The position numbers and the translations under genes were made by a program. A model generated the notes under the pieces. It saw only the letters and a program-made list of their open reading frames with translations. It made no database searches and had not been told where the DNA came from. A stretch of DNA of 55,193 nucleotides from a virus (Duplodnaviria; Caudoviricetes), in the IMG/VR virus record IMGVR_UViG_3300001338_000004, positions 1 to 55,193 of that record. One strand, written 5' to 3'. How positions within the stretch are numbered: the first letter of the stretch is position 1; every line of letters begins with the position of its first letter. Below, piece after piece: positions 2,428-22,693 of the stretch.

Positions 2428-4542
2428 CTAGGCGGCCGTCACCATCTTCGAGCGTTGCTTCATCCGACGGTTGAAGAGATCGAACTTCTGCGCTTCGTTC
2501 CAGCGTTGTCCGGGCCAGACCACCTTCATCTCTACCGGCAGCGGCACCGGTAAGCCAAGGAGTTTCTGGTCCATCTGCATCGCTTCGACGATCTTGGTCA
2601 TCAACCGGACGCTATGCAATTCATACGGCACCTCAATACAGAGTTCATCGTGGATCGTGAGTAGGAGATACGCCATACGCTGCGTCTCGGTCTCGAGCAT
2701 ATGGTCGACGTTAATCATCGCGTTCTTCATGACATCCGCGGCCGTGCCTTGGATTTCATAGTTGGTTGCGCGATACGCATAATGCGGTTCGAATTCATAG
2801 CGGCGTCCATAGACGTTGAAGATCTCTCCGTCGTCGCGCGCTTTCTCGATCATCGTCTTCATGTACCGTCCGACGCCCGGTAGCTCCCGCTCGTACTGGT
2901 CGATGAATTCCGCCGCCTGATCTCGGCCCATCTTCAAGAGGCCCGCCAGCTTAGCTAACCCGCCGCCGTACAGCTTGGCGAACATGATCAACTTCGCGCA
3001 CTTGCGGTAGTAGTCTTTATGTTCCTGGAAGTCCGGTCGCTTACCAAAGACTTTCTTGGCGATGTCACCGTGATAGTCTGCACCCGACAACAGCGCGACC
3101 TGCATCTTCTCTTCTTTAGAGAGAAACGCGAACAGCCAGACTTCGATCTGCGAATAGTCCGGGAGATACCAGAGGTACCCGGGCCGTGGGCCGAAGGCTT
3201 CACGTGGCCGCGACTGGATATCGGCTTTCCGGCGTCCGGTGGTTTCACTGGCAACCTGCATCAAGTTCGGATCGGAACAGGACAGACGTCCCGTCACCGT
3301 CCCGGTCTGCTTGAAGTTTGGATGTAAAATGTAGACCCCACGGGACTCTTTCACCCACAGCCGTTCGTAGACGTCCAGAAACGACGACACGGTCTGCTTG
3401 GCCGCTTTGTACTCCAACACGGCCTTGGCGAGTGGGTCCGGAATCCGGTGAACCGTCTCCGGGTCTTTGGGGTCACGGGTCCACCCATACTTCTTGGGGC
3501 GTGCGGCAGCGTAGTCCGGCAGTTCGTCGATCAGTGCCGTGTAGCCCGTTGCCAGTTTCAAGAGCTGTTCGCCGTCCAGGGAATAGTTGTGCTTGCCGGT
3601 CTTCTTGTTTACCGTCCCCGTGTACTTCGCAACGTGGCCTCGGTCGTCGTAGAATTTCTCCGTCATCTGTGGCGTCGATCGATAGTTGAGGCCCGCACCA
3701 CCGTTGGCCTCGGCCAAGCGCTGCTGCTTGTTCTGGTACTTGACATAGAATCGACGCAACGACCGCACCCGGCCCGGGAACACGCGTGTGCCGCGGTCCT
3801 CCATACGCTTCAACACGTTGAATAGTTTGTGTTCGCGCTGAAAGAGATTCCACGAGCGAGTGTTCTTACGGCACTCGTCGTACCACAGCATCTTCAACAA
3901 GATCGTACGGAGCGCGTCCCCTCGCGCGTATTCCTCGCAGAGCTCTTCTGGTGCCAGCCAGTAGTCGGCCTTGGCCGGTGACTTGCCCGCGATCTCCTTC
4001 GTCGCGATCGACCAACGCATCTTCCGTGCCCGCGCTCGCGCTCGGTTGAGCGACTGATGCAATTCCTTCTCATCGCCGTCGGGCATCGCCAGCCATTTCT
4101 TCGACAACGGTTTCAACGCATACGTGAGTTCGTTGCCGGCTGTCATGACATGCGACAGGATCATTGTTTCGACAACCCGTCCACGGAACGGGATCTTTTG
4201 GAACTCACACATCCGTCGATCGTGGCCGATATTGTGGCCGACCTTCACGAACGCCTCGTTGTCAGTGACCTCGCTGATCTGCCGCTTCTGCCGGTCGGTC
4301 AAGGTGACCGCCCGTGTCAACGGGTCCACCCGGCCGCGCACGTAGGCGGTCTTACCGCTTTCGTCCGCAAACGAAAATGCGAACGGACGTGCGGGAACCA
4401 CCAGACGCGTTTCGACGTCGCCCTTGCCAAAGTCGTAGGTGATACGTTTCAAGTCACCCCATCCGACCAATCCGGTGTCCTCGGTATCGAACCCGATGAA
4501 CCGGCCGGTGAGTCCGAGGGAGTTCTTAACGCGCAGGAGCAT
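2428..4542 (-). CDS. polA: Family A DNA polymerase with 3'-5' exonuclease
   Basis: ExoI FDTEDTG, ExoII HNIGHD, ExoIII YARGD; TVTGRLSCSDPNL; motif A DYSQIE; motif B RKCAKLIMFAKLYG; IQGTAAD; motif C TIHDEL. Confidence 0.95.
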   Translation of the reverse strand: MLLRVKNSLGLTGRFIGFDTEDTGLVGWGDLKRITYDFGKGDVETRLVVPARPFAFSFADESGKTAYVRGRVDPLTRAVTLTDRQKRQISEVTDNEAFVKVGHNIGHDRRMCEFQKIPFRGRVVETMILSHVMTAGNELTYALKPLSKKWLAMPDGDEKELHQSLNRARARARKMRWSIATKEIAGKSPAKADYWLAPEELCEEYARGDALRTILLKMLWYDECRKNTRSWNLFQREHKLFNVLKRMEDRGTRVFPGRVRSLRRFYVKYQNKQQRLAEANGGAGLNYRSTPQMTEKFYDDRGHVAKYTGTVNKKTGKHNYSLDGEQLLKLATGYTALIDELPDYAAARPKKYGWTRDPKDPETVHRIPDPLAKAVLEYKAAKQTVSSFLDVYERLWVKESRGVYILHPNFKQTGTVTGRLSCSDPNLMQVASETTGRRKADIQSRPREAFGPRPGYLWYLPDYSQIEVWLFAFLSKEEKMQVALLSGADYHGDIAKKVFGKRPDFQEHKDYYRKCAKLIMFAKLYGGGLAKLAGLLKMGRDQAAEFIDQYERELPGVGRYMKTMIEKARDDGEIFNVYGRRYEFEPHYAYRATNYEIQGTAADVMKNAMINVDHMLETETQRMAYLLLTIHDELCIEVPYELHSVRLMTKIVEAMQMDQKLLGLPVPLPVEMKVVWPGQRWNEAQKFDLFNRRMKQRSKMVTAA

Positions 4543-4951
4543 TTTGTCTCAACCACGCCAACGTCTTGCACCGACGACATTCGGTCCCCGGCTCTAAGAG
4601 CGTCGGGCACGTCTGCGCGGTCCAGTGTAAAGTCCACGCGTGGTGAATCTGTTCCCGACGGTCCAGGTACATTCCGAAGAACGCGAAGTAGTTCGCCGCG
4701 TCGCGCAGACGACTATGCGGCGGGTCGCTGTCCAGCTGTTGCACCGCACAGTACCGCTGGAGCGCCGTGCACTGTTTGTCGAGTAGGACACCCAGTACCT
4801 GGAACACGCTCATCTGCCAGTCCACACACGACTGGAGTACGTTGAGTAAGACAACTCCGTCAGGTGCGTAGTCGCTCTGTCGGTTGACGATGATGCCGAC
4901 CGACTGCCGATAGAAGTCGGCGACGTACTCGGCTTGTTGGACGAGATTCAC
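4526..4951 (-). CDS. Nucleotide-modification-associated all-alpha protein (DUF1599/Nmad1-like, MazG superfamily)
   Basis: RQSDYA...DK...RLRDAANY pattern resembles the KNxDYG...DLANY family signature; sits between the glycosyltransferase and the polymerase with overlapping start/stop. Confidence 0.55.
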   Translation of the reverse strand: MNLVQQAEYVADFYRQSVGIIVNRQSDYAPDGVVLLNVLQSCVDWQMSVFQVLGVLLDKQCTALQRYCAVQQLDSDPPHSRLRDAANYFAFFGMYLDRREQIHHAWTLHWTAQTCPTLLEPGTECRRCKTLAWLRQNAPAR

Positions 4952-5763
4952 TTGGCCTCACTGTAGTGATGAAGAATCTTGGACCAGCGCATGGCAAACT
5001 CGCCGGCGGAGGTGAGCTTCCCGAAGTAGCGCTTCAGTTCAGGAAAGTCGCGAAGCAAGATCTTGTTGGACACGCGATTGTTGCGGCGCTTGTGTTCGAG
5101 CGACCCCTGTCCGCCTTTCTGGTGCCGTACCTTCGTCAGTTCGGCGTCGGCGCAGATACGGAACTCGCAGAGACGGTCGCGCAGCAGTGTGAAAATAATG
5201 TGACGGTCGCCTTGTCCGAACATCTCGACCGGCGCACGGTACTCGAGGTACAGACCGGCCGGAAAGACGCGAAAGGGCATGCTCACGCCTTCGAAGGACC
5301 GAAGACCGTAGCGCGACTCCGCACTCCTGACCTTGTCGCGATTCCAGAACTTGAACATCCGGTGAATGCCGGCCATGACCACCGGCCCGCGCCACTCCGC
5401 GGCCGCACGGACGAGCTTGACCGTATCGGCTTGCGTGAACACGGCGTTGTCGTCGTTCTCAATGATGAAGTCTGGCCGATACTTCATCGGCAGATTTCGC
5501 AGATGCGCTCGGAGTACTTCGCGGGCGACGGTGGTTGATCCACCCGGATTGTGAATACGAACCGACTCTGCGTGTTCGAACTTGACACGGTAGTTTGCGT
5601 CCTGGAGCAACGCACTGTCGTCGAATCCGAAGAGGTTGTGCGCCTGATCCAGCCAGCGCATGACGCCCTTCGGCCCATAGCGTCGATTGAACATCCGTGC
5701 GCGGCCGCGGGTCGGGGTGACGACCAGCGCCGTGACGATCCCCTTGCGTGTTTTGATCTGCAT
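4948..5763 (-). CDS. GT-A fold glycosyltransferase (TET/JBP-associated, GREB1-like type), putative DNA glycosyltransferase
   Basis: N-terminal VVTPTRGR, GG..AR, FIIENDDN (DxD-like), GD acid motif and C-terminal KGG; ATG 5763 with AGGAG upstream. Confidence 0.6.
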   Translation of the reverse strand: MQIKTRKGIVTALVVTPTRGRARMFNRRYGPKGVMRWLDQAHNLFGFDDSALLQDANYRVKFEHAESVRIHNPGGSTTVAREVLRAHLRNLPMKYRPDFIIENDDNAVFTQADTVKLVRAAAEWRGPVVMAGIHRMFKFWNRDKVRSAESRYGLRSFEGVSMPFRVFPAGLYLEYRAPVEMFGQGDRHIIFTLLRDRLCEFRICADAELTKVRHQKGGQGSLEHKRRNNRVSNKILLRDFPELKRYFGKLTSAGEFAMRWSKILHHYSEAK

Positions 5764-5784
5764 CGGTTCTCCTGAAAGGTGAAC

Positions 5785-5815
5785 GGCCGAACCGGCCCTA
5801 TTGCCGGTCCGACCT
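5785..5815 (-). terminator. GC hairpin downstream of the SSB gene
   Basis: Imperfect inverted repeat ggccgaaccggc / gccggtccgacc; no clear U-tract. Confidence 0.3.
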
Positions 5816-5828
5816 ACCACCCGGGACG

Positions 5829-6758
5829 CTACTTCTTGCCCTTCTTCGCCTTCGCCTTCTTCGCGGGCGGCTCGACCTTCAGGATGCTGTCGACGCCGAC
5901 GGTAACCTTCTTGCCGGCCTCGGTCTGGATCTGCACTTCCTCGTCGTCCTCATCCAGATCCAGGACCTCGCCCTTCTCCTTCTTGCCCTTCTTGTTCTTG
6001 AAGGTCACCACGCAGCCGACCGTGACGTCGGTGGCCGCCTCGTCGTCTTCCTCTTCTTCCTCTTCGGACTCGTCGTCGTCCTCGTCCTCCTCTTCCTCTT
6101 CGTCGTCTTCGTCGTCCGAGTCCGCGTCTTCGTCTTCCTCGGCGTCGTCCTCGTCTTCTTCGTCTTCGTCTTCCTCGTCGTCTTCCTCTTCCTCTTCGTC
6201 TTCGTCTTCCTCCTCGTCGTCGTCGTCCGAGTCCTCCTCGTCCGAGTCCTCATCTTCTTCGTCCTCGTCTTCCTCGTCCGTGGACATCAACTTGGAGATG
6301 TACACGTTCTGGTACTCGCTGCCGTCCTTGGTCTTCAGCGAGATCCGGCAGACCGGCTTCGCCTTCTCGAGCTCCGCGAGAATGCCCGGCAGATCCTTCA
6401 CGAGATCGTCGATCTCCTCGACGTCGTAGCCGAGGCGGTCGAGGTCGGCGCAGAGGAAGGTGAGGTTGTCCTCGGTCTCGATGCCCTGGAACGCCCACTT
6501 CTCCTTGCCTTCGTACTCGCCCTCAACGAACTTCCAGACGAAGCGAATCTGGGCGCGGCCCGCGTTGGACTTCTCCAGCTTCGCACCGACCAGACGCGCG
6601 AGGTACCGACCGTCGTCAAACTCGACGACCTTCGTACGCTCGCCCATCTTCTTCTTCGCTTTGCGCCAGAGCTTCTGCGCGGCCGCGAGCGCCTTGGACG
6701 CGTCGAACTTCTTGCCGCCCTTTTCCTTGCCCGGCTTACCTTTGGTTGCTTTCGCCAT
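5829..6758 (-). CDS. DUF669-like single-stranded DNA-binding protein with ~80-residue Asp/Glu tract and C-terminal small beta domain
   Basis: DDGRYLARLVGAKLEKSNAGRAQIRFVWKFVEGEYEG is typical of DUF669/OB-fold SSBs found next to Sak4; ATG 6758 with AAGGAG RBS. Confidence 0.7.
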   Translation of the reverse strand: MAKATKGKPGKEKGGKKFDASKALAAAQKLWRKAKKKMGERTKVVEFDDGRYLARLVGAKLEKSNAGRAQIRFVWKFVEGEYEGKEKWAFQGIETEDNLTFLCADLDRLGYDVEEIDDLVKDLPGILAELEKAKPVCRISLKTKDGSEYQNVYISKLMSTDEEDEDEEDEDSDEEDSDDDDEEEDEDEEEEEDDEEDEDEEDEDDAEEDEDADSDDEDDEEEEEDEDDDESEEEEEEDDEAATDVTVGCVVTFKNKKGKKEKGEVLDLDEDDEEVQIQTEAGKKVTVGVDSILKVEPPAKKAKAKKGKK

Positions 6759-6809
6759 GCGAACGACTCCTTGAATGCCTCGTGTCACCGACACGGGCGG
6801 TTGATCGAC

Positions 6810-7727
6810 CTACTTCTTCTTGAGCGAGACGCGCGAACGTTTCTCCTTTCCTTTCTTGACTGGCGGCACGTACTTGTTGTCGAACGCATCGACCAGGTTC
6901 TGGTACGCCTCTTTCGAAGAGGAACCCATGTCGATGGACCGAACCCGCTTGCCTTCTGGCGTCCGAAACCGTTCCTCGAGCCGATGCCCGGCGGATACGT
7001 TTTCATCTCCCAGAATCTGTAACACGCGCCGGTTGCCGTCGTAGCGGTAGTAGGCCCAGATGTCGGCCATCCCCTCGACGATCTCACGTGCTTGCTTCGG
7101 CATCGTTGCGCCGATCTTCGTGGATACGGTTCCATCGGCTCGCGCGATATCCATCTCCGCCGCATGCGAAATAAGGACAACACCCTTGCCCGTCGCGGTA
7201 AGGTCAACCAAAAACCGCTCGACCTCGTCGCGTAGTTTCCGCCACCCCTTGCCGTATCCCTCGTCGCCGATATCCTCGACGCCGTAGTGCTCACGCACCC
7301 ACTCCTCGGCACGCTTCACCATTCGATCGACCGTGTCGATGACGACCGTGTCGAACGACTTGTCCTTGCGGATCAGCTTCAGGTACCCACGTGCCTCGCG
7401 CCAGTCACGCACTGGCTTCCCGAACAGGCGGAGCCCTTTGCCGCCGGGTTCGAAGAACATGAAGAAGGTACGCTTCATGCGCGAGGCCAACGAGGTCTTG
7501 CCGATCTTCTTCTCCCCGAACAGCAAGAAGAGGTAGTCTTGAATCGAGTCCGACGGCTTGGTCTTCTCCGTCGGCAGCGATACGTCGACCGGGACCAACG
7601 TACTCCCGGCTTTCTTCTTGCCTCCCTTCTTTTTGAAGGGACGTTCTTCACGAACCGTTGCCATTGCGTATCCTTTCTTCGCCCACTCGGGCGGCTCGTC
7701 TCCTAGGAGGTAGTCCTCGGCCGACAC
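6810..7727 (-). CDS. Sak4-like AAA+ single-strand annealing ATPase
   Basis: Walker A FGEKKIGKTS, Walker B TVVIDTV, GYGKGW and VVLISHA motifs; adjacent to the SSB. Confidence 0.85.
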   Translation of the reverse strand: MSAEDYLLGDEPPEWAKKGYAMATVREERPFKKKGGKKKAGSTLVPVDVSLPTEKTKPSDSIQDYLFLLFGEKKIGKTSLASRMKRTFFMFFEPGGKGLRLFGKPVRDWREARGYLKLIRKDKSFDTVVIDTVDRMVKRAEEWVREHYGVEDIGDEGYGKGWRKLRDEVERFLVDLTATGKGVVLISHAAEMDIARADGTVSTKIGATMPKQAREIVEGMADIWAYYRYDGNRRVLQILGDENVSAGHRLEERFRTPEGKRVRSIDMGSSSKEAYQNLVDAFDNKYVPPVKKGKEKRSRVSLKKK

Positions 7728-7730
7728 GAT

Positions 7731-8873
7731 CTACTCCGACGCGAGCGACGCGGCAACCGCTTCGTGCGGGTAGGTTCCGTTCGTGGCGATCCACTCGATG
7801 TCGCCACCGTTCATTGCGGCCGGAGTCAGGACCCAGAACGGCATCTGCACCGCGGTGTGCTGGCGCGGCAAGTCACGCTGTGCCGGCGGCACGGGCCACT
7901 TCCCGTCCGGCGGCCACGACTCGAGACCTGCGAACTTCGCCACCTTCGCCATATCGCTATGACTGCCGAGGTAGTACGCCATGAGCGGCGGGCACTTCAT
8001 CCGCACCTCACGCAGCATGAGCTGGGCGACGCAATTGACTTCCCAGTCCATGACATGCTCGAGCCGGTTGCCGAGCACCCCACGCAACGCGACGTAGTTG
8101 TAGTCGCAGTGAATGTAGGTTTGCGTCCCCATCCACAGCAACCGACGGGCGTCCTGCCACGGAATCCCGGCGTCGACCAACGCGCCGTAGAGCGCTTTGC
8201 CTTCGTCGAGGTACGCCTGAATCGCTCCACGGAGTCCGTGGGCTCGATCCTGTTGGTGAATGAACGCGTCGATCGGTGTCCAGTCGATCACACAGCCCTG
8301 TCGGTCGCCGAGATCACCCGACAAGAACGCCGTGTTGTCGGCCGGTCGACCAAGCTCGTCGAGGTCACAGGCCCGGGCCAACGTTTCTGGCATCGTCCAT
8401 CCGCGATGCCGCCAGTCGTTATCGCGACCGCCGTGCTGCATGAACCCGGCCCCGACACGCGTGCGCACGATCTGGTGTGTCTCTGCGCGTGTGCATCCGT
8501 CGACGCAGAAGCTGAACGTGATGCGCTCGAGGACCTGTTGCAGCGTCCGGCCCGCGAAGCACGCTTCAACGTACCCACGTTCGGTGTCGTTGAGTTTGGC
8601 CCAGCCGGTCCGCATGTTCATCGCTCCGGGCACGCGAGCGTCGGCTTTCTCGACCGGCTGTCGGTCCACGGTTCGACTGGGATGCTCACCCCAGTTCGCA
8701 ACCAGCGCGTCGTAGATGGACGAGAACAGATCGTCCTTCGGACCCCAGTGGTCCAGTGTCACCCGAAGCGCGGCCGGTCCCCGGGCGATGAGTGTGGTCG
8801 GTTCTTCTCCTTTGTGGATGGCGTGATTCCGATGCCCGGCATCGGCATAGTTGACTCCGCTATTCGTTGACAC
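7731..8873 (-). CDS. Divergent ThyX-fold (flavin-dependent thymidylate synthase-like) enzyme
   Basis: ERITFSFCVDGCTRAETHQIVRTR..FMQHGGR and GIPWQDARRLL..N..L....NRL....WEV match the ThyX scaffold. GTG 8873 with GAGGAG RBS. Confidence 0.8.
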   Translation of the reverse strand: MSTNSGVNYADAGHRNHAIHKGEEPTTLIARGPAALRVTLDHWGPKDDLFSSIYDALVANWGEHPSRTVDRQPVEKADARVPGAMNMRTGWAKLNDTERGYVEACFAGRTLQQVLERITFSFCVDGCTRAETHQIVRTRVGAGFMQHGGRDNDWRHRGWTMPETLARACDLDELGRPADNTAFLSGDLGDRQGCVIDWTPIDAFIHQQDRAHGLRGAIQAYLDEGKALYGALVDAGIPWQDARRLLWMGTQTYIHCDYNYVALRGVLGNRLEHVMDWEVNCVAQLMLREVRMKCPPLMAYYLGSHSDMAKVAKFAGLESWPPDGKWPVPPAQRDLPRQHTAVQMPFWVLTPAAMNGGDIEWIATNGTYPHEAVAASLASE

Positions 8874-9837
8874 GATACGACTCCTCTGCTTGGAGCACCG
8901 CTCCAAGGTTGGTGACCGACCGGACCTGAGGATGGAGCACTGCGGATCGGTCAGCGCAGTGAACCAGGTAGCTACGAATCCCGTGTTTGGCATATGCATT
9001 CGCCAACACGGGGACGTCGTCTACCGCAAATACGATCTTCGATACCACGTCGTCCTGGAAAAGTCGCTCCATCTTGGACCCTTCAACCGCCCACCAGAGG
9101 AGATCAAAGGGGAGTCGGTTCTCCTCCAGCCAACATACGGTGTCCGTGTAGATATTCGGCCACCGGTCCACCGGCCGCGCCGTCAAGAGCACGATACGCA
9201 ATCCTTTGGCACGGAGCGCCTCGAGAAACTCCCGTGCTCCGGGCATCAGCGGAAGTTTTCGCTTCCAGCCTTCGCTACGGAACCGATGCTTCACTTCGGC
9301 CCACCGCTGTTGGCTCCACCCAAGCGCGTCGGCGTCCAGAAAACGCCGGTCGGTGCAGAGACGGTCGTACAGCGGTGTGTCGATATAGCCGTGATCAAGC
9401 ATCCAGTAAAGCAGACCGCCGATGTAGTCGCAGATCACGTTGTCGATATCAATGACAACGCACGGCCCGTCGGACTCCACGAGCCACTCTTCTCGATAGC
9501 GCTGCTTGACTACCGCGGTCTTCTGGGCATACGCTTCGAGCAGCTTCTCCGGTGACCACCCATGCAACTGGGCGAGGGTCAGCCACATCTTGAAGATGTC
9601 CGTCAGTTCGTTGTCCGCTGCGCCGCTGTTGAACGCTTTGCGATGCCGTCGGTGTTTCTTCCATACGGTCACGTGCAAGAGTTCGTGCAGCTCGTCGGTC
9701 AAGTTCAATACGAACTCGCGAACCAGATCGACGTATTCCGGCGAGCCGACCGGGACCGACGCGCGTAGCTGTCGATTGAACGCTTCCTGGTCCGCCCACA
9801 GCGCCCGTAGTCCCGCCCCCAGTGTTTCGTTGCTCAT
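8860..9837 (-). CDS. Dimeric dUTPase/dCTPase (MazG fold) fused to HAD 5'-nucleotidase
   Basis: N-terminal DELHELL..WK..ELTDIF..AY..K..R; C-terminal HAD motifs IDIDNV, LLTAR, K, VDD. ATG 9837 overlaps the upstream TGA (ATGA). Confidence 0.8.
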   Translation of the reverse strand: MSNETLGAGLRALWADQEAFNRQLRASVPVGSPEYVDLVREFVLNLTDELHELLHVTVWKKHRRHRKAFNSGAADNELTDIFKMWLTLAQLHGWSPEKLLEAYAQKTAVVKQRYREEWLVESDGPCVVIDIDNVICDYIGGLLYWMLDHGYIDTPLYDRLCTDRRFLDADALGWSQQRWAEVKHRFRSEGWKRKLPLMPGAREFLEALRAKGLRIVLLTARPVDRWPNIYTDTVCWLEENRLPFDLLWWAVEGSKMERLFQDDVVSKIVFAVDDVPVLANAYAKHGIRSYLVHCADRSAVLHPQVRSVTNLGAVLQAEESYRVNE

Positions 9838-10673
9838 GAGAACCATCCGTCGCGTGTCCACGCTTTCAATGTTTTGAACGATACGTGCGCGAGCTCGTCC
9901 GGTTCCCATCGCGCGAACCGGCCGACGCAGAGGATGCCGTACGTTTGTAGCCAATCCAGGGTTTCACTTGTTCTGGGATTGGTGTATACCTTGCCCGGTG
10001 CGATGCGCGTCGCTGGTTGTTGTCCTCGCGGATCAAGCCGCTCCGCGTGCCGGTCATCTTCACGATCGGTGATTCGATACACCGACGTGGCGGGGTCGGC
10101 GATGTAGTTCACGTACACCGCCGGAGGCATGATGTCGGTGACCGGACGCGGTTCGACGACCACGTAGATCGGTTTGGACTGCAGCTTGCCGACCGGCTCT
10201 GGTCGCTTGCACAGCGACAGGAGGGCCGGTAGGGGAATCGTGGAAATTAATACGTCGAATTCGATCCGCTCGCCCGAGGCCATGAATAGGATTCGGTTGA
10301 ACGGATTGATTTCATTGACCCGCTGATTGTACTCCACCGTCAGCGGCGGAAGTTCCACGGAGTAGCCCGTGGTGTGCTCAATGAACTGCTTTCGAAAGTC
10401 ACGCAGCCGGAGATCCGAACTCTTGCCGACCTTGGCTTTGTACTGTTCGATCGCGCCGTCCGTTGCCGGTGACCCGTCGATATGCGTCACGACCGAGAAT
10501 TCGTGACACGGCAGTCCCGTGAGCGGTTCGTGCAGGTAGTTAGCTCCGTAGAACCGCGACTGACCTTTGGTCTGCGGTTGCGGCCGCCAGTCCAACACCC
10601 GTGCTTGGGTGATGAGGGTCTTGGCCAGCTGACCGAGAAACCCACCACCCACGATGACAACTTTGCGACTCAT
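9834..10673 (-). CDS. FAD-dependent oxidoreductase/mutase, UDP-galactopyranose mutase (Glf)/HemY-like fold
   Basis: Rossmann VVIVGGGFLG, YGANYLH (compare Glf YGAHIFH), DVLISTIP and C-terminal VGRFARW. Confidence 0.7.
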   Translation of the reverse strand: MSRKVVIVGGGFLGQLAKTLITQARVLDWRPQPQTKGQSRFYGANYLHEPLTGLPCHEFSVVTHIDGSPATDGAIEQYKAKVGKSSDLRLRDFRKQFIEHTTGYSVELPPLTVEYNQRVNEINPFNRILFMASGERIEFDVLISTIPLPALLSLCKRPEPVGKLQSKPIYVVVEPRPVTDIMPPAVYVNYIADPATSVYRITDREDDRHAERLDPRGQQPATRIAPGKVYTNPRTSETLDWLQTYGILCVGRFARWEPDELAHVSFKTLKAWTRDGWFS

Positions 10674-11047
10674 GTCGGCTCCTGTCGCAGATTTGGTGTG
10701 ACCGACGACACACGCCCGACGTATTCCCGGCCTCCGTGACTGCCGATGAACAGACGCGCGTTTCGTCGTCTCGAGACCTCGTTGAATTTCTCGATCACCT
10801 CCGCCTCCAAATCAATACCGAGGCTGGACGCGAGTAGGGTCAGGTACGCTTGCACATCCGCGAGTTCTTTGGCAATGTCCTTGTCAGAAATGTGCTCGCC
10901 CCGTAGCCGCTTCTTCAAGAAGTTCGCGGCTTCGCCCACTTCGCCGACGAGTGCGGTCATCCAATCGGATGCACTCCAGTGATGCAACGGGTGGAACACT
11001 TCTTCACATCGCTCTTCGTTGATATGTTGGAAATCTCTCAGATGCAT
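10670..11047 (-). CDS. mazG: MazG-like nucleotide pyrophosphohydrolase
   Basis: GEVGEAAN..KK...ELADV...IDL....KF signature; ATG 11047 with GGAGG RBS. Confidence 0.85.
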   Translation of the reverse strand: MHLRDFQHINEERCEEVFHPLHHWSASDWMTALVGEVGEAANFLKKRLRGEHISDKDIAKELADVQAYLTLLASSLGIDLEAEVIEKFNEVSRRRNARLFIGSHGGREYVGRVSSVTPNLRQEPT

Positions 11048-11048
11048 G

Positions 11049-12095
11049 TCAACCCTCCAACTCTCGGAACATCTTGTTGCGTTTGAAGAACCCGGACCGT
11101 CCCGCGCCCTCGCCGCCACAGAACGCGCCGAGATACCCGCAGCGGCCATACTTGCCCTCGCACTGATCCGAATTCTTGTAGTGACCCGACTCTCCGGCCC
11201 ACCACAGCAAGAAGTCGCTCACCAGCGCCGTCAACTCCTGCCGGACTTTCTGGAGATCCTTCTTGCTCATGTCAACACGAAGCCGAATGAAGTAGTGTTG
11301 CGGTTTCTTCTGGACCTCCTTCGCCACCCGGGCCGTGTACGACGTGATCGTGTCGCTCTTCTTGAAATGTTGGCCCGGTCGGCGAATGATGTTGTAGATC
11401 AATCCGGACGGCTCGACTCCATGCAGATGCTGGAGTGCCGTCAGGTAGACGCCGGTTTGAAAGTCATGCGGCAGCATGTCCACCAAGACATCCGGTGAGA
11501 TGCGTGACTTGGTCTTCGTCTCCAGCAAGCGGATCGCGCCGGACCCCTTGCCGGCGAGAAGGTCTCGGAAGACGCCGTCCATTTTGCCACGGAGAAAGGT
11601 TCGCATGTGCTTGCCGCTCTTCGTGACGACCTCGAACGGAATCTTGAATTCCTGTTCCAGCTGAATCCATGCCATGCGTTTCAGATCCAGGCGATGGTGC
11701 TTGAAGTACGCCGGCATCAAGACCCGGGCCATCGCGATACTCAACTCGAGTTCTTTGATCGCGTCGCCGGACGCCCGTGGGTTGTCTTTCTTCCAGACCT
11801 CCCCGGCCGTGTGGCACATCTTGAGGATCCATTCAGCGGACGGAGCCTCCGTGAGTTTCTTCCGCCGGATGCGATCGTAGGTCTGCTCCAGAACGTAGTG
11901 GCAGATGGACCCAAAGATCGTGGCCATCTTTTCCCGACGCGAGGTCCACCCGACGAGGAAGAGACGGGCACGTTCGCGGCATCCTTTGAAGTTGCTCAGC
12001 AACCCGGCCGTGACGCCGTCGCGCTCCGGATCGTACAGGTTGCCTCGGTCCATGTCAGACTCAACGACGCGCAGTGGAATCAGTTTCAGTTTCAC
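11049..12095 (-). CDS. PD-(D/E)XK (RecB/Cas4-like) exonuclease
   Basis: C..R, FGSICH, LEQEF, RGKMDG, LETKT, Q..VY and C-terminal Cys cluster. Confidence 0.85.
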   Translation of the reverse strand: MKLKLIPLRVVESDMDRGNLYDPERDGVTAGLLSNFKGCRERARLFLVGWTSRREKMATIFGSICHYVLEQTYDRIRRKKLTEAPSAEWILKMCHTAGEVWKKDNPRASGDAIKELELSIAMARVLMPAYFKHHRLDLKRMAWIQLEQEFKIPFEVVTKSGKHMRTFLRGKMDGVFRDLLAGKGSGAIRLLETKTKSRISPDVLVDMLPHDFQTGVYLTALQHLHGVEPSGLIYNIIRRPGQHFKKSDTITSYTARVAKEVQKKPQHYFIRLRVDMSKKDLQKVRQELTALVSDFLLWWAGESGHYKNSDQCEGKYGRCGYLGAFCGGEGAGRSGFFKRNKMFRELEG

Positions 12096-12602
12096 TCAGA
12101 ACCTCCCTACGGCCCATAGGCCAATACCCGTTGCGTCCCACGCATGGGTTTCAATCTTCAGTTTACGACACACCGTCGCGCCGAGGATCTTTCGGATGCG
12201 ATCTTCGACCACCGGTTTCGGTAGTTGCCCCTTCCAGTCCATCGGTAGGATCGGAAGGAACGGTGCCGGCCGGAGTCGTTCGTACAAAACACCGTCGAGA
12301 AATGTGAGTCGCTGCAAGTCGCCGGTCTTCCAGCCCATTCCGGTACCCATGTACTGGGTGGTCTCACAGACGACACGATACGGCGTTGCCCGGCTCCATG
12401 TCGTCTTGCGCGACTCCTCTTCGGTGATCTGGGCGACCGCGTCCGCAATCGCTCGTGCCCGCCGCCACCATTCAGCACCGCGCTTCGTGTACACGACCTC
12501 GGTCCTGATCGGGGTGGCGTCTTGAAATACGGCCACCCCAGTACCGTTCAAACCCGGATCGAGAGCCACGAGCAGCCGACACTGTGCTATTCGGGACGGC
12601 AT
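12096..12602 (-). CDS. RuvC-like Holliday junction resolvase
   Basis: VALDPGLNGTGVA, VVCE, WK..K and HAWDATGIG. Confidence 0.8.
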   Translation of the reverse strand: MPSRIAQCRLLVALDPGLNGTGVAVFQDATPIRTEVVYTKRGAEWWRRARAIADAVAQITEEESRKTTWSRATPYRVVCETTQYMGTGMGWKTGDLQRLTFLDGVLYERLRPAPFLPILPMDWKGQLPKPVVEDRIRKILGATVCRKLKIETHAWDATGIGLWAVGRF

Positions 12603-13031: not shown

Positions 13032-14414
13032 TTATGCTGCGATCGTTCGAATCAACGTCTCCAACATGCGTGAAGAGAAACGCTTGATATCCCACGACTT
13101 GTCCTTCAACGATTCCACCACATCGTCGTCGGCCGACCCCCGTGTGATCAAGTCGATGTAGAGAAGTGGCCGGTCCCGCTTGGCCATATGCTCGATACGC
13201 TTCTCCGTCTGCGACCGGACCTCCGCATCATACGTGTTGGAGTAGTAGACCGCCACGTCGGCTACCGATAGATCCAACCCGTACTGACCCACCTGCCCCT
13301 GCATGAGGAGAACCTGAATCTGTCCGCGCTGAAATTTCGAGATCAGCGGCCCGCGCTCCGCTTTCGGCGTCGCCCCGTTGATCGCCGCCACCCGCACGCG
13401 TTTCTTTCGTAGTCGATGGAGCGCCTCGTCCAGTTCGTGATTGAATCGGAACCAAACCACGATCGGCTTGCCGGCAAACTCTTCGCGGACGATACGGTCC
13501 AACTCTTTAAACTTGGCATCCGACACCAGCGTGTTGTCGGGCGCAAACCCGCCCGCGAGCTTCGACAGCCACGTCACACGCGCCCCGACCCACTTCGTGT
13601 CCGTCCCCGACACGCCGGAGCGAAACTCTTTCAGGATCAGCTTCTGTTCCCGCCGCTGGGTCGCATTCATATTGACGACCCGCGCTTTGTAGATCTTCTT
13701 GTTGCCCATCTTCGCTTGCTTCAGTGTCAAGCAAAACGCCCGTGTGTGCGTCTCGCGCTTGATAAGGTCGCGTGTGCCCTTATTCGGTTGCCAGTCGTGC
13801 TCGAACCAACCCTGATGATATTTCGCGGACTTGAACTTCCAGTAGTTGTCGTAGCCGCAGAACTCGCCGTTGAGAAAACGGAACTGACTGAACACGTCGA
13901 GGTCGCTCTTCGGCCGTGGGAGTCCCGACAGGATCGCCTTCGACCGCACGTGCTGGAATCCGTTCGTCAACAGTTTCGTAATCTGGGCTTGTGGATTTCG
14001 TATCCGAGTTGACTCGTCCACGATAACACAGTCCCAGTTAATGAACGCCAACGCCGGAATCGCGCGCAGCCCTTCGAAATTGATTAGGTGCCACCCTTCG
14101 TGTTGTTTGACGTATTGAAACCGTTGCTTCGTTGGGAGATCCGACAGTAGGTGGATCCGTCCCATTGGTACACCTTCGAGACGTAGCTCTCGAGACCACG
14201 CCGGGGCCGGGAGCGTGGTCAGCGGCGCCACCAACAGGATACGTTTCCAGTTGTGCGCCTCGGCCCATCGAATAATGACCGGACTCTTCCCCAGACGCAT
14301 CTCCATGAAGAGTGCCGGCGTATCGGTTTGCTCGCAGTACCGGTAGGCCCGCTTCTGGTGCGGGTAGAACGTCCTCGGTGCGAACGGTTCAGAGCGCAGA
14401 CGGAAGAGGGCCAC
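13032..14414 (-). CDS. SNF2-family (SF2) helicase
   Basis: EMRLGKS, VIVDEST, LSGLP, GLDLS and QTEKRIEH motifs. Confidence 0.9.
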   Translation of the reverse strand: MALFRLRSEPFAPRTFYPHQKRAYRYCEQTDTPALFMEMRLGKSPVIIRWAEAHNWKRILLVAPLTTLPAPAWSRELRLEGVPMGRIHLLSDLPTKQRFQYVKQHEGWHLINFEGLRAIPALAFINWDCVIVDESTRIRNPQAQITKLLTNGFQHVRSKAILSGLPRPKSDLDVFSQFRFLNGEFCGYDNYWKFKSAKYHQGWFEHDWQPNKGTRDLIKRETHTRAFCLTLKQAKMGNKKIYKARVVNMNATQRREQKLILKEFRSGVSGTDTKWVGARVTWLSKLAGGFAPDNTLVSDAKFKELDRIVREEFAGKPIVVWFRFNHELDEALHRLRKKRVRVAAINGATPKAERGPLISKFQRGQIQVLLMQGQVGQYGLDLSVADVAVYYSNTYDAEVRSQTEKRIEHMAKRDRPLLYIDLITRGSADDDVVESLKDKSWDIKRFSSRMLETLIRTIAA

Positions 14415-14418
14415 AGCG

Positions 14419-14850
14419 TTACATCAAGCAGACAACGCACTTGCTGTCGCGGATGACCGGTCCACGTCCGCAGGTGTTGCAGCTCTCGCCCTCGCCGTGA
14501 AGGATGTGCCAGTCGCATACCGGAAACGAGTGGACCAACGCCACGGCTCGCTCTGGACAGATCGTGCACCGACGACCTTCTTCTTCGATGCGAATCAGCT
14601 CGTTCGGTTTCACTGGCTCCGGGGCCGTCGGCGTGTCTACGTCGAACAAGCGGACCTGTTCTGCCCGAGGGCCGCGCTCACCAGGTCGTTTATCGTTGGT
14701 CAGGAACTCCACTTGCTGACCCTCTTCCAGCAACGCGAACACGGCCGGTTTGACTACCGCTGTGTGGTGAAAGAACCGCTGCTGGCCGTCCTCACCTTTG
14801 ATAAATCCGAACCCACGATCACTCACGATCTTCGCAATGACTCCAACCAC
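14419..14850 (-). CDS. Cold-shock domain protein with C-terminal Cys/His-rich extension
   Basis: RNP1 RGFGFI, RNP2 FFHH and GPRAEQV, followed by CxxC, CxxH, CxxC and CxxC motifs. Confidence 0.85.
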   Translation of the reverse strand: MVGVIAKIVSDRGFGFIKGEDGQQRFFHHTAVVKPAVFALLEEGQQVEFLTNDKRPGERGPRAEQVRLFDVDTPTAPEPVKPNELIRIEEEGRRCTICPERAVALVHSFPVCDWHILHGEGESCNTCGRGPVIRDSKCVVCLM

Positions 14851-14911: not shown

Positions 14912-15787
<876 letters not shown>

Positions 15788-21633: not shown

Positions 21634-22491
21634 TCATTCGTCCTCCCATCGGTCCCACATCACGGGTCCTTGATAGCCGCCGTCGCGTGTCCACCGGGGA
21701 AACTCGATGCGCAGCATCCGTCCGATATCCGGATGTTGGGCATGCCCAGAGACCGACCGTGCGCGCTCTTCGAATCGTCGGAGCTGCTCGTTGTCCAGCG
21801 TCTTCACACTGGTGGTTTTCCCTCGGGCATCACGGAGCAACACCACCGCATAGCGGCCGCGATTCACTTTCTCACCCCGGCTTTCTTCGAACCCGACTAC
21901 GCGAAGGGCCGCGGTCTTGAAGCGTTTGTATTTCAACCACGTACGCGTCCGTTCGCCCGGTTCGTACGTCGACACCCGGTGTTTGAGCATCAGACCCTCG
22001 CCGCCGCGCTTGATGATGCGCGTGGCCAGCGCCTTCATATCCGCTTCGGTACGTACCGTCGCTTGGTCGATCAGCCGAACCACCGGGGTCCATGACCGGG
22101 TGTACGCCTCTTCGAGATACTGCCGTCGTGCGGCAAGCGACTGCCCGATCAGTAGTGTGCCGTTGCGTTCGAGCACGTCGAACAATACGACGCGTGCTTC
22201 GTGTTGCAGGTCCTTGCGCTTGACGTCGGTCGCCGTATCGCCGGCCAGCAACTCACCGTCGTACAGTCCCGGACGAAGCCACGAGAGATGCGTCCGCAGA
22301 TGGTCGGGAAGCTCCGCCACCGGCATCTGACCACGACGCGGCCGCTTATAGGCGGTGACCCGCTTGCCGACTCGAATGAATACGCGGTGGCCGTCGAGCT
22401 TCTCTTCCAGGACCCAGTCACGCCAACACTGCTCCACGTACTTGGGTTGATACGCCGTGGCGAGCATTGGATGGAGTTTCAGTCCAGGCAT
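21634..22491 (-). CDS. ATP-dependent DNA ligase
   Basis: PMLA, motif I EEKLDGHR, YDGEL, VLFDVL, EGLMLK and WLKYK; GGAGG RBS. Confidence 0.93.
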   Translation of the reverse strand: MPGLKLHPMLATAYQPKYVEQCWRDWVLEEKLDGHRVFIRVGKRVTAYKRPRRGQMPVAELPDHLRTHLSWLRPGLYDGELLAGDTATDVKRKDLQHEARVVLFDVLERNGTLLIGQSLAARRQYLEEAYTRSWTPVVRLIDQATVRTEADMKALATRIIKRGGEGLMLKHRVSTYEPGERTRTWLKYKRFKTAALRVVGFEESRGEKVNRGRYAVVLLRDARGKTTSVKTLDNEQLRRFEERARSVSGHAQHPDIGRMLRIEFPRWTRDGGYQGPVMWDRWEDE

Positions 22492-22693
22492 ATCCCCTCC
22501 ACCAGCGTCCACTTGCGCACACAGTACCAACACGAGGGCCGCTGCTCACACGGCGCGGTCACCCGTCCGTCGAAGGATAGGTGAACCGTTGTCGGCACCA
22601 AACGGATGCCTACATGTTGCTCGGATGCGCCGACGAGTACGGTCGCCTCGGGTAGCGCAGCCAGGGCCTCGGCGAGTTGTCGGGTCGTGGTGA

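Follow-up and report, generated by a model that had tools for sequence, protein, structure and literature searches.

The module and its operon

The window analysed here is the whole of the IMG/VR virus record IMGVR_UViG_3300001338_000004, 55,193 bases long (G+C about 60%, completeness estimated at 93%, strand switch near 25 kb). Our subject is a module of eight open reading frames (ORFs) inside its minus-strand replication operon. The conserved core of the module consists of a ThyX-like protein, a miniature flavoprotein with the predicted fold of UDP-galactopyranose mutase (UGM) and a fusion of a pyrophosphatase with a HAD phosphatase; a glycosyltransferase (GT) is an optional add-on. Our preferred, tentative interpretation is that the module is a nucleotide-level thymidine-substitute pathway with optional glycosylation of the DNA. 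The eight ORFs, all on the minus strand, are as follows.

10670-11047, minus strand: MazG-like all-alpha nucleoside triphosphate (NTP) pyrophosphatase; 125 amino acids (aa), ATG at 11047
9834-10673, minus strand: mini UGM-fold flavoprotein; 279 aa
8860-9837, minus strand: fusion of an all-alpha NTP pyrophosphatase with a HAD phosphatase; 325 aa, ATG at 9837
7731-8873, minus strand: ThyX-like protein of the "no-His" subfamily; 380 aa, GTG at 8873
6810-7727, minus strand: Sak4-like ATPase annealing single-stranded DNA (ssDNA); AAA_24 1.8e-32, phrog_124 3.9e-29
5829-6794, minus strand: acidic protein with a long D/E run; 321 aa
4948-5763, minus strand: glycosyltransferase of predicted GT-A fold; 271 aa, ATG at 5763
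4526-4951, minus strand: orf141, a small helical ORF; 141 aa

The genes of the operon had been described as translationally coupled, and the overlaps of starts and stops can indeed be read in the sequence. The junctions are ATGA/GTGA overlaps or gaps of a few bases, with AGGAG-type sites preceding the internal starts. The upstream exonuclease gene meets the MazG gene in TGAcATG, a junction read directly in the sequence, and the MazG/flavoprotein and flavoprotein/fusion junctions are both ATGA. The ThyX-like frame starts at the GTG at 8873 behind AGGAG and overlaps the end of the fusion by 14 nt. The GT gene is joined to orf141 by GTGA, and orf141 overlaps the start of the family A DNA polymerase gene (PolA) by 17 nt, as the claim of an overlap with the polymerase gene implied. 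Four DNA runs from one study of sediment and groundwater metagenomes contain the window stretch as assembled contigs; no RNA run is listed as containing it.

The family calls of the earlier note for MazG, ThyX, Sak4 and PolA are all borne out by Pfam, that for Sak4 additionally by phrog_124. The note saw neither a ThyA-like nor a TET/JBP enzyme, and Pfam scans of window ORFs, run on sets of 10, 10 and 40, bear this out. Those scans of 60 ORFs returned no ThyA, TET/JBP, methyltransferase, dNMP kinase, deaminase, 5-HMUDK or aGPT-Pplase.

The ThyX-like protein

The ThyX-like protein matches Pfam Thy1 (PF02511) at 5.6e-17; its score of 62.6 bits (64 in the six-frame search) exceeds the cut-off of 24.8. 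Of 8,000 candidates scored, more than 295 belong to its family, with lengths of about 350-450 aa, and many are encoded on contigs of 50-130 kb. The canonical ThyX motif is RHRxxSxxxxSxRY, and it is present in the eight canonical viral ThyX sequences of a 19-row alignment (the window and 18 cultured phage records, described below). The window instead reads VRTRVGAGFMQHGGRD, in which the His is absent, Gly occupies the Ser column and Asp the Tyr column. In the numbering of the 422-aa ORF the relevant features are VRTR (178-181), MQHGGRD, a leucine (L153) in the canonical His column and the conserved R285 and R312.

The loss of these residues is accompanied by retention of others. Five arginines (R179, R181, R192, R285 and R312) are invariant in 38 members of the ThyX-like family and align with arginines of T. 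maritima and viral ThyX, and a profile of the family aligned to T. maritima ThyX retains the two C-terminal ones. The nucleotide-binding arginines of the T. maritima enzyme we take to be numbered R78, R80, R90, R147 and R174. By alignment, the window protein retains the arginines that hold dUMP.

A column some 25 residues upstream of the motif also separates the two kinds of ThyX in the 19-row alignment: it holds His in seven of the eight canonical viral sequences and Ile or Leu in all 11 rows linked to the flavoprotein (L153 in the window). We take it to correspond to T. maritima H53, a mapping that uses the alignment ranges and an assumed 12-residue tag offset, and it is thus the probable folate/flavin-stacking column. 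In T. maritima ThyX, Y91 and N85 keep H53 in position, and its stacking partner is either the reduced flavin or the pterin of the folate (PMC11940539).

Searches of PDB sequences with the single ThyX-like or flavoprotein sequence gave nothing useful; matches were obtained with family profiles. No relative was detected with the ThyX profile in 185,579 species genomes, which thus offer no clue to a prophage or host. Two features of the wider family may be recorded. One member of 510 aa (P0030) carries a precomputed PF00550 domain (phosphopantetheine-binding carrier) in addition to Thy1. Many members have a CxxCGH...CxxC insert near the C-terminus, possibly a zinc ribbon, which the window protein appears to be without.

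The mini UGM-fold flavoprotein

The flavoprotein carries the motifs GGGFLG (9-14), LDWR (27), YKAKVGK (78), LISTIP (142), VYRIT (198) and GRFARW (251). Its family comprises 13 proteins with a conserved GGGxxG (alignment A1). The family profile matches T. cruzi UGM in the PDB (4dsg, E 1.5e-7), and in the alignment to A. fumigatus UGM the profile stretch YisdpetpvYRtt falls on YFPEDNCPFYRAT and GRFxxW on GRFGSW. Y190, Y199 and R200, invariant in the 13 sequences, fall on YFPEDNCPFYR of the A. fumigatus enzyme in the hidden Markov model (HMM) alignment. The family thus has the Arg and Tyr of the UGM sugar-diphosphate site (A. fumigatus R327 and Y317, mutants of which are named in PDB titles).

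The predicted structure is in keeping with this. An AlphaFold2 (AF2) model has a pLDDT of 90 and its best Foldseek matches are UGM. In a VIA-align comparison the top 17 entries are eukaryotic UGMs (Z 17.7-19.0, root-mean-square deviation 3.2-3.6, 263-273 of the 279 residues aligned), followed by bacterial UGMs and protoporphyrinogen oxidases at Z about 15.

The protein is nevertheless much smaller than a UGM, having 279 aa against 359-519 aa for the listed UGM chains. Only about 270 of some 470 A. fumigatus residues within the aligned range are matched, leaving about 200 without a counterpart. Profile positions 1-103 correspond to A. fumigatus chain positions 1-227, and in this part the model has only three short helices, at 72-97. 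The A. fumigatus chain before position 227 we take to be the uridine-binding helical domain with the mobile-flap arginine R182. The flavoprotein has no such domain, about 120 residues being missing before chain position 227. Pfam GLF and NAD_binding_8 do not match the flavoprotein; the only match is Amino_oxidase at 1.1e-3, below cut-off. No match was obtained by tblastn against 50,697 phage records, nor did a search of viral loci with the single sequence yield relatives; those in cultured phages were found only with the A1 profile. The description "Glf-like" is therefore upheld by the family profile (4dsg, 1.5e-7) and by the predicted structure, and not by Pfam.

The pyrophosphatase-HAD fusion and MazG

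The N-terminal part of the fusion, a putative dUTPase-like all-alpha NTP pyrophosphatase, has the motifs DELHELL (48), WKKH (59) and ELTDIF (77). HAD motifs I, II and IV can be read complete in the remainder (DIDNV 130, LLTAR 217, VDDV 272). Pfam matches all lie below their cut-offs: NT5C 1.2e-4 (22.4 bits against 24.8), Hydrolase 5e-4 and dUTPase_2 0.059. Among PHROGs the fusion matches phrog_420 (2e-13), phrog_415 (PNK-type, 4e-9), phrog_173 (1.5e-4) and phrog_18650 ("dUTPase", 1.6e-3); the match to phrog_415 competes with an NT5C-type assignment of the HAD domain. By tblastn the N-terminal part finds annotated Microbacterium phage dUTPases (E 4e-4, with 33% identity over 127 aa), while annotated phage "phosphatases" are matched by the C-terminal part. 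The assignment as a dUTPase/dCTPase-HAD fusion is weakly supported.

An HMM of the fusion family matches Mycobacterium phage Onyinye gp80 (3e-25) and Streptomyces phage Dryad gp59 (4e-25), and only faintly ORF57 of Pseudomonas phage 14-1 (6e-4). By these matches the HAD half of the fusion is homologous to actinophage phosphatases. The helical domains of Dryad gp58, Onyinye gp81 and 14-1 ORF57 escaped the same HMM, which therefore lends no support to one common pyrophosphatase domain across all lineages.

The separate MazG protein matches Pfam MazG at 1.3e-4 (22.6 bits against a cut-off of 22), MazG-like at 4.9e-5 and phrog_229 at 7e-7. A homologue was found in just two related loci (L024 and L052), which places MazG outside the conserved core.

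The core in related viral loci

When IMG/VR was scanned for the pattern of the ThyX family, 50 loci were obtained, and their six-frame ORFs were searched with the flavoprotein, ThyX and GT profiles and with the single proteins. Counts refer to 52 loci including the window, which are not dereplicated; L004 and L005 were dropped as being the same contigs as L024 and L038. Where at least 2.6 kb lies upstream of ThyX, 29 of 30 loci carry both the flavoprotein and the fusion. The exception, L006 (10992-12690), has a nucleoside 2-deoxyribosyltransferase-like gene (4e-17), a YfbR-like 5'-deoxynucleotidase (1.5e-21) and, further downstream, a P-loop kinase; these genes may functionally replace the flavoprotein and the fusion.

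The stretch between ThyX and PolA, spanned by 30 loci, is more variable. It holds the GT in 16, a short-chain dehydrogenase (SDR) with a 183-aa protein in 10 and neither in four; GT and SDR are mutually exclusive. The SDR (adh_short 1e-29) occurs in L024 (identical to L004; 13470-15300), L011, L021, L040, L046, L047, L050, L018, L054 and L055, and its 183-aa partner is glyoxalase/VOC-like according to an Atlas model. The pair may be an alternative tailoring cassette at the position before PolA that GT and orf141 otherwise take. orf141 is present in 19 of the 30 loci, namely all 16 with GT and three without, and never with the SDR cassette. In L003 (2763-5169), L015, L016, L017 and L051 the ThyX-like gene is followed immediately by a 142-aa ORF, a TAGT-like GT (E 1.3e-4) and a radical SAM/SPASM gene (5e-12 and 1e-9). 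Two tandem GT paralogues lie between ThyX-like and Sak4 in L032 (1897-3553) and L056 (854-3031). Sak4 is syntenic in all related loci.

A second scan, centred on the GT, used a 17-row alignment, as the 30-row alignment gave no usable conserved stretch. It gave 27 loci, all with the same synteny, 12 of which had new locus ids; the ThyX-like gene is present in eight of these, and the other four are cut by the contig end just upstream. The earlier note had proposed a neighbourhood search for ThyX-like, Glf-like and GT genes together, and they do co-occur in other phages, within one lineage.

These counts bear on the role of the flavoprotein. It had been suggested to supply a furanose nucleoside diphosphate (NDP)-sugar to the GT, in a scheme in which ThyX makes a hydroxymethyl-type handle, the Glf-like protein is a true NDP-sugar pyranose/furanose mutase and the GT transfers the furanose to DNA. 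UGM is the best structural and profile match, and the GT is TAGT-like. There is moreover the cluster of Rhizobium phage RL38J1, which combines a thymidylate-synthase homologue, a UGM and GTs. In pathways of this kind 5-hydroxy-dCMP arises through the flavin chemistry of a ThyA homologue and is glycosylated in DNA by dedicated glycosyltransferases; for RL38J1 the proposed source of the furanose sugar is a UGM encoded by the phage (PMC13326640). That UGM is full length, however, whereas the window protein lacks counterparts for about 200 A. fumigatus residues and has no Pfam GLF match. Among the 19 loci covered on both sides, the flavoprotein accompanies a GT in nine and occurs without one in nine, and a GT without the flavoprotein was never seen. 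It is likewise kept in cultured phages (14-1, Onyinye and Dryad) in which the GT profile found nothing. The flavoprotein thus tracks the ThyX subfamily rather than the GT and is not simply the sugar supplier of the GT, and we consider the scheme very improbable.

Cultured phages with the same ThyX subfamily

The flavoprotein profile matches "oxidoreductase" genes adjoining "phosphatase" genes in Onyinye (gp78, 5.5e-13) and Dryad (gp60, 1.1e-11). In the Pbunavirus 14-1, ORF65 matches A1 (3.7e-11), ORF59, annotated "FAD-dependent thymidylate synthase", matches the ThyX profile A2 (1.5e-17), and ORF57, annotated "polynucleotide kinase/phosphorylase", matches HAD_PNKP (1.1e-10) and has a helical tail. 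A tblastn search with 14-1 ORF59 gave 609 phage records; 15 of different genera were picked by hand from a list of 60 rows, and Dryad, Onyinye and 14-1 were added.

The flavoprotein profile matches 10 of these 18 whole records, each carrying a Thy1 gene: Dryad, Onyinye, 14-1, Pantoea phage Kyle, Cronobacter phage Ss1, Rhizobium phage TM3_3_6, Microbacterium phages Krampus and Gumball, Gordonia phage Suzy and E. coli phage ECML-117. In all 10, T, S, N or Q replaces the His of RHR and the Tyr of SxRY is absent. The eight negative records (STSV1, CPQ4, Moorella phage MTATph1, PSS2, Hardycor2, Alone3, Syn5 and UTK0002) all have RHR, and seven of them SQRY. In Kyle (L072, 50901-53121) genes annotated as thymidylate synthase, pyrophosphatase and haloacid dehalogenase are adjacent, so that the three activities of the module occur as separate genes.

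A maximum-likelihood tree of the 19 ThyX sequences places the 11 flavoprotein-linked ones on one side of a branch with support of 88/86, which is not decisive. The window sits on a long branch (end branch 2.47) adjoining Dryad and Onyinye (98/96). On this sequence evidence the flavoprotein-linked ThyX proteins are one subfamily with a partner flavoprotein.

The glycosyltransferase and its neighbours

In 290-aa numbering the GT has the motifs TPTRGR (35), NDDNA (122) and GDRH (204), and R40, D123-D124-N125 and D205 (DDRH) are conserved in its family. It has 35 relatives among 1.84 billion representative proteins. Pfam finds nothing in the window GT, and the TAGT HMM finds nothing in the window. 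Among 30 family members, 11 have sub-threshold TAGT (PF20691) matches at E<=0.1, the best being 1.9e-4, and three match Glyco_tranf_2_3. No match was obtained by tblastn against the 50,697 phage records. The AF2 model (pLDDT 91) finds GT-A enzymes in the PDB by Foldseek (E about 1e-6, TM 0.5). Among the predicted viral structures in BFVD, TAGT-domain proteins stand at ranks 3, 5, 7, 19 and 39, and a beta-glucosyl-HMC-alpha-glucosyltransferase is also found. According to the model, therefore, the window GT has the GT-A fold; the earlier call to this effect holds, and the nearest viral structures include TET-associated DNA glycosyltransferases. Phage DNA glycosyltransferases of the GT-A class have R...DDD...EDY/F motifs and are associated with thymidylate synthases and 5mYOX (bioRxiv 10.1101/2023.12.21.572611).

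GT-A folds are generic, and the GT, possibly together with the flavoprotein, might act on a target other than DNA, such as a glycan of the virion or host envelope or a protein, its operon position being incidental. About 65% of some 25,000 phage contigs containing a GT have no neighbouring base-modification enzyme (bioRxiv 10.1101/2023.12.21.572611), which lends this view some weight. We consider it improbable here: in all 27 GT-centred loci the GT gene belongs to the same replication module, its translation is coupled to that of replication genes, and its closest named viral structures are DNA glycosyltransferase families. Such a target would in part coincide with plain two-component dTMP synthesis, considered below.

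The family of orf141 (A4) comprises 15 sequences with conserved columns D27, Y28, K59 and D84. The ORF matches no Pfam or PHROG family, and the A4 profile gave only chance-level matches to PDB sequences. It had been called Nmad1-like. Nmad1, which we take to be DUF1599 (PF07659), was rejected as its identity at the HMM level: none of the 15 relatives matches PF07659 at E<=0.1, nor does anything in the window at E<=10. A weak lead is an Atlas score of 0.88 to a cluster with DUF1599 in 32% of its members.

The acidic 321-aa protein, conserved beside Sak4 in related loci, matches no significant Pfam or PHROG family and no OB-fold or SSB family, and its designation as an SSB is not confirmed. One ORF among the 40 scanned matches DnaT_2 ("putative DnaT-like ssDNA binding protein") at 2.2e-25; judging from this match, the true ssDNA-binding protein may be encoded there and not by the acidic ORF at 5829-6794.

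A possible thymidine-substitute pathway

If our interpretation is correct, the core would turn dUMP into a 5-substituted deoxyuridylate that replaces part or all of the thymidylate in the phage DNA. The pyrophosphatase domain would supply dUMP from dUTP or remove a competing dNTP. The ThyX-like protein and the flavoprotein would form a two-component flavin system that installs a group other than the plain folate-derived methyl. The HAD domain could dephosphorylate either a canonical dNMP or the newly installed side chain. After replication the TAGT-like GT-A enzyme, with orf141 as its usual companion, would glycosylate the modified base in DNA, and MazG, an accessory, would trim the dNTP pool. 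The resulting modification would protect the DNA from restriction-type defences. In kind the module would be a pyrimidine modification based on a homologue of thymidylate synthase (TS) with post-replicative glycosylation, built on a ThyX-derived enzyme. Of the pathway drawn in the earlier note, what survives is a cluster that looks like DNA or nucleotide modification on a ThyX rather than a ThyA or TET base; the NDP-furanose role is not supported as drawn, nor is Nmad1.

We favour this interpretation because the core is kept in 29 of 30 loci and the "no-His" ThyX subfamily is the flavoprotein-linked one, and because ThyX has lost the RHR His, the SxRY Tyr and the probable stacking His column yet keeps the dUMP arginines. 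The flavoprotein, for its part, keeps a portion of the UGM active site (counterparts of YxxxxxxxxYR and GRFxxW). The predicted GT-A fold with R...DDN...DDRH motifs, whose best named viral matches are TAGT-domain proteins, points the same way. So does the sharing of one site by variable cassettes (GT with orf141, GT with radical SAM/SPASM, SDR with a VOC-fold protein). In thymidine hypermodification, too, modification genes are described as being permuted combinatorially (PMC8989533).

Cultured phages provide further support. The virion DNA of the Pbunaviruses F8 and 14-1 is reported to resist enzymes with TG in their sites and to contain sugar-like thymidine derivatives of 362 and 390 Da that replace about a quarter of T; Pbunavirus is described as being without known modification genes (PMC12191111). 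Phage 14-1, with its reported modified thymidine, has the three gene families of the core, which argues for our reading. Isolates of Wifcevirus, distant relatives of Pbunavirus, are described as insensitive to all restriction-modification systems tested, although they have no known genome protection (PMC11990801). ECML-117 is a Wifcevirus with an RTR motif and a weak flavoprotein match. RL38J1 offers a precedent in that a TS homologue, a phage UGM and DNA glycosyltransferases are proposed to cooperate.

The main alternative is ordinary thymidylate supply by a two-component ThyX. The dUTPase would feed dUMP to the ThyX-like protein, which would make plain dTMP, and the flavoprotein would only reduce or deliver flavin for a ThyX without a stacking His of its own; HAD and MazG would be pool housekeeping and the GT an unrelated accessory. 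The Thy1 score of 62.6 bits, well above cut-off, the retained dUMP-binding arginines and the resemblance of the N-terminal domain of the fusion to annotated phage dUTPases are all compatible with this, as are the even division of the core between loci with and without GT (nine and nine of the 19 fully covered) and the failure of Pfam to find a kinase for a modified dNMP among the window ORFs scanned. We know of no report of modified DNA in the cultured actinophages in which this ThyX subfamily is widespread. Structures of A. fumigatus UGM with bound NADPH or NADH exist (titles of 5vwt and 5vwu), and a UGM-fold protein can therefore act as an NAD(P)H-flavin reductase.

Plain dTMP synthesis, however, offers no role for a nucleotidase-like HAD domain fused to the pyrophosphatase, since dephosphorylating dUMP or dTMP opposes dTMP supply. 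It also leaves unexplained the retained residues of the UGM sugar-phosphate site, the variety of cassettes at one site (GT, radical SAM, SDR-VOC), and the modified thymidine of Pbunavirus, for which no other candidate genes are known (PMC12191111). On balance we regard it as rather unlikely.

Several points nevertheless weigh against a thymidine-substitute pathway. A modified base has been demonstrated in no member of the lineage of the window phage, the chemistry of the module being a prediction from sequence, and the link of the three core genes to the Pbunavirus modification is, as far as these comparisons go, an association. Pfam scans of the 93%-complete record found no dNMP kinase, 5-HMUDK, aGPT-Pplase, TET or methyltransferase, and a modified dNMP would therefore rely on host kinases. 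The TG context and the replacement of only about a quarter of T in Pbunavirus (PMC12191111) fit a DNA-level enzyme better than a nucleotide-pool route. The 18 cultured records were picked by hand, and three of the 10 flavoprotein matches are weak and partial (Gumball 3.8e-4, Suzy 1.2e-3, ECML-117 6e-3). Placement on one branch means that a subfamily is shown and not repeated co-selection, a single evolutionary event being sufficient; likewise the related loci all share one synteny, so co-occurrence may reflect descent. The GT family never attains the Pfam TAGT cut-off of 27.5 bits (the homologue in L003 scores 22.4 bits). The equation of the I/L column with T. maritima H53, as noted, depends on the assumed tag offset.

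A more specific variant of the thymidine-substitute pathway can be formulated, which we regard as a long shot. The rewired ThyX would use no methylene-tetrahydrofolate; instead the "methyl" carbon would come from C1 of a sugar, and the product would be a 5-(1-deoxyalditol-1-yl)-deoxyuridylate. The N5 of the reduced flavin in the UGM-fold protein would attack C1 of an aldose or aldose phosphate to give a flavin-iminium adduct, whose iminium carbon would in turn be attacked by the activated C5 of dUMP on the ThyX-like protein, with the flavin then reducing the product. Loss of the terminal sugar phosphate would be the work of the fused HAD, and the polyol, once in DNA, would be decorated by the GT. 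Masses calculated by hand are 362.3 Da for deoxyuridine (dU) bearing a C5 polyol chain (C14H22N2O9) and 390.3 Da for dU bearing a cyclised C6 unit (C15H22N2O10). They correspond to the two nucleoside masses reported for F8 and 14-1. If true, the variant would mean that flavins can form C-C bonds by a new kind of chemistry, and C-glycityl DNA bases would be reached by a new route.

The diagnostic that emerges is simple: a ThyX without the RHR His, the stacking His and the SxRY Tyr is always accompanied by the mini UGM-fold flavoprotein (18 hand-picked records and the window). Carriers are easily listed and include cultured phages of M. smegmatis, Microbacterium, Gordonia, Pantoea and E. coli. 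Were the thymidine-substitute reading correct, the core would provide candidate genes for the sugar-like thymidine derivatives of therapeutic Pseudomonas Pbunaviruses, and might explain the restriction insensitivity of Wifceviruses. Should the product be no more than dTMP, a two-component ThyX subfamily would still have been defined.

Other genes of the record

The remaining genes of the operon, again on the minus strand, are listed here.

13032-14414, minus strand: SNF2 helicase, at the upstream end of the operon order given here
12096-12602, minus strand: RuvC-like ORF
11049-12095, minus strand: PD-(D/E)XK (Cas4-like) exonuclease, PDDEXK_1 1.3e-12, phrog_1218 1.8e-19; the gene upstream of the module
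2428-4542, minus strand: PolA, DNA_pol_A 5.5e-67; end of the operon segment
274-2406, minus strand: primase-helicase, last in this order

In the related locus L005/L038 the PolA frame (L005 12197-15358) is open over 1053 aa and matches the window PolA in two pieces about 750 nt apart, which suggests, from the sequence, that something has been inserted, for instance an intein or a further domain. A cold-shock-domain protein with a Cys-rich tail (CSD 1.5e-12) is encoded at 14419-14850 on the minus strand. The adjoining gene, at 14912-15787 (minus), encodes 291 aa; its product has KAKAKA repeats and its tail is acidic (D/E). An ATP-dependent DNA ligase (DNA_ligase_A_M 7e-25) lies at 21634-22533 (minus); phage 14-1 likewise has a ligase and MazG near its module. 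A search of the window for tRNA genes found none.

Relation to known systems

Known routes of pyrimidine hypermodification begin with a ThyA-fold or a TET/JBP enzyme; if our reading is true, a ThyX-fold enzyme working with its own flavoprotein would add a third point of entry. A full-text literature search gave no paper tying a ThyX-fold enzyme or this flavoprotein to DNA hypermodification. The T4/SPO1-type pre-replicative pathways combine a dCTPase/dUTPase, a ThyA-family hydroxymethylase and a dTMP nucleotidase. The logic is the same as here, a dNTP pyrophosphatase and a dNMP phosphatase being paired with a TS-like enzyme; the window differs in its TS fold, in the fusion of the pyrophosphatase and HAD domains and in the added flavoprotein.

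With canonical ThyX (PF02511; T. maritima TM0449) the window protein has in common the Thy1 domain, RxR and the equivalents of R90, R147 and R174. It differs in having RTR for RHR, GGRD for SxRY and Leu in the His column; it is also longer by about 90 residues at the N-terminus and about 80 at the C-terminus, and carries an internal insert. Unlike canonical ThyX, the subfamily is always found with a partner flavoprotein (18 cultured records and the window). For that flavoprotein the closest fold and profile match is eukaryotic UGM (4dsg, 3uka), with which it shares the GxGxxG FAD site and the YR and GRFxxW motifs. It is about 200 residues shorter, without a Pfam GLF match and not associated with an NDP-sugar user, and its invariant YKxKVGK motif is without a UGM counterpart that we can name.

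Pbunavirus 14-1 resembles the window in having the flavoprotein, an RTR-type ThyX and a HAD protein with a helical domain beside a polymerase, and its ThyX falls in the same flavoprotein-linked subfamily in the tree. It differs in its DnaE-type polymerase (by annotation), in a PNKP-type HAD protein of reversed domain order and in lacking a GT or orf141 family match; the window ThyX is also far more divergent, with GGRD in place of TSRA.

The cytosine hypermodification clusters with 5mYOX/TET and TAGT resemble the window in the motifs of their GT-A enzyme, namely an Arg near the N-terminus followed by acidic DDx and another acidic motif, a likeness of motifs and not of a direct alignment to a characterised TAGT (bioRxiv 10.1101/2023.12.21.572611). 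Unlike those clusters, the window record is without a TET/5mYOX or C5-methyltransferase in the Pfam scans, and no GT relative attains the TAGT cut-off.

Another parallel is provided by the glycosylated 5-hydroxycytosine of phages RB69, DLP3 and RL38J1, where a TS homologue with flavin chemistry makes the handle at the mononucleotide level and DNA glycosyltransferases follow (PMC13326640). RL38J1 adds a phage UGM, and HAD phosphatases occur in the sugar branch (PMC13326640). These pathways use ThyA-fold dCMP hydroxylases with a cognate dNMP kinase, whereas the window has a ThyX fold with uracil-type arginines and no kinase was found by Pfam; and the UGM of RL38J1 is full length, whereas its counterpart in the window is a 279-aa remnant tied to ThyX and not to the GT (PMC13326640).

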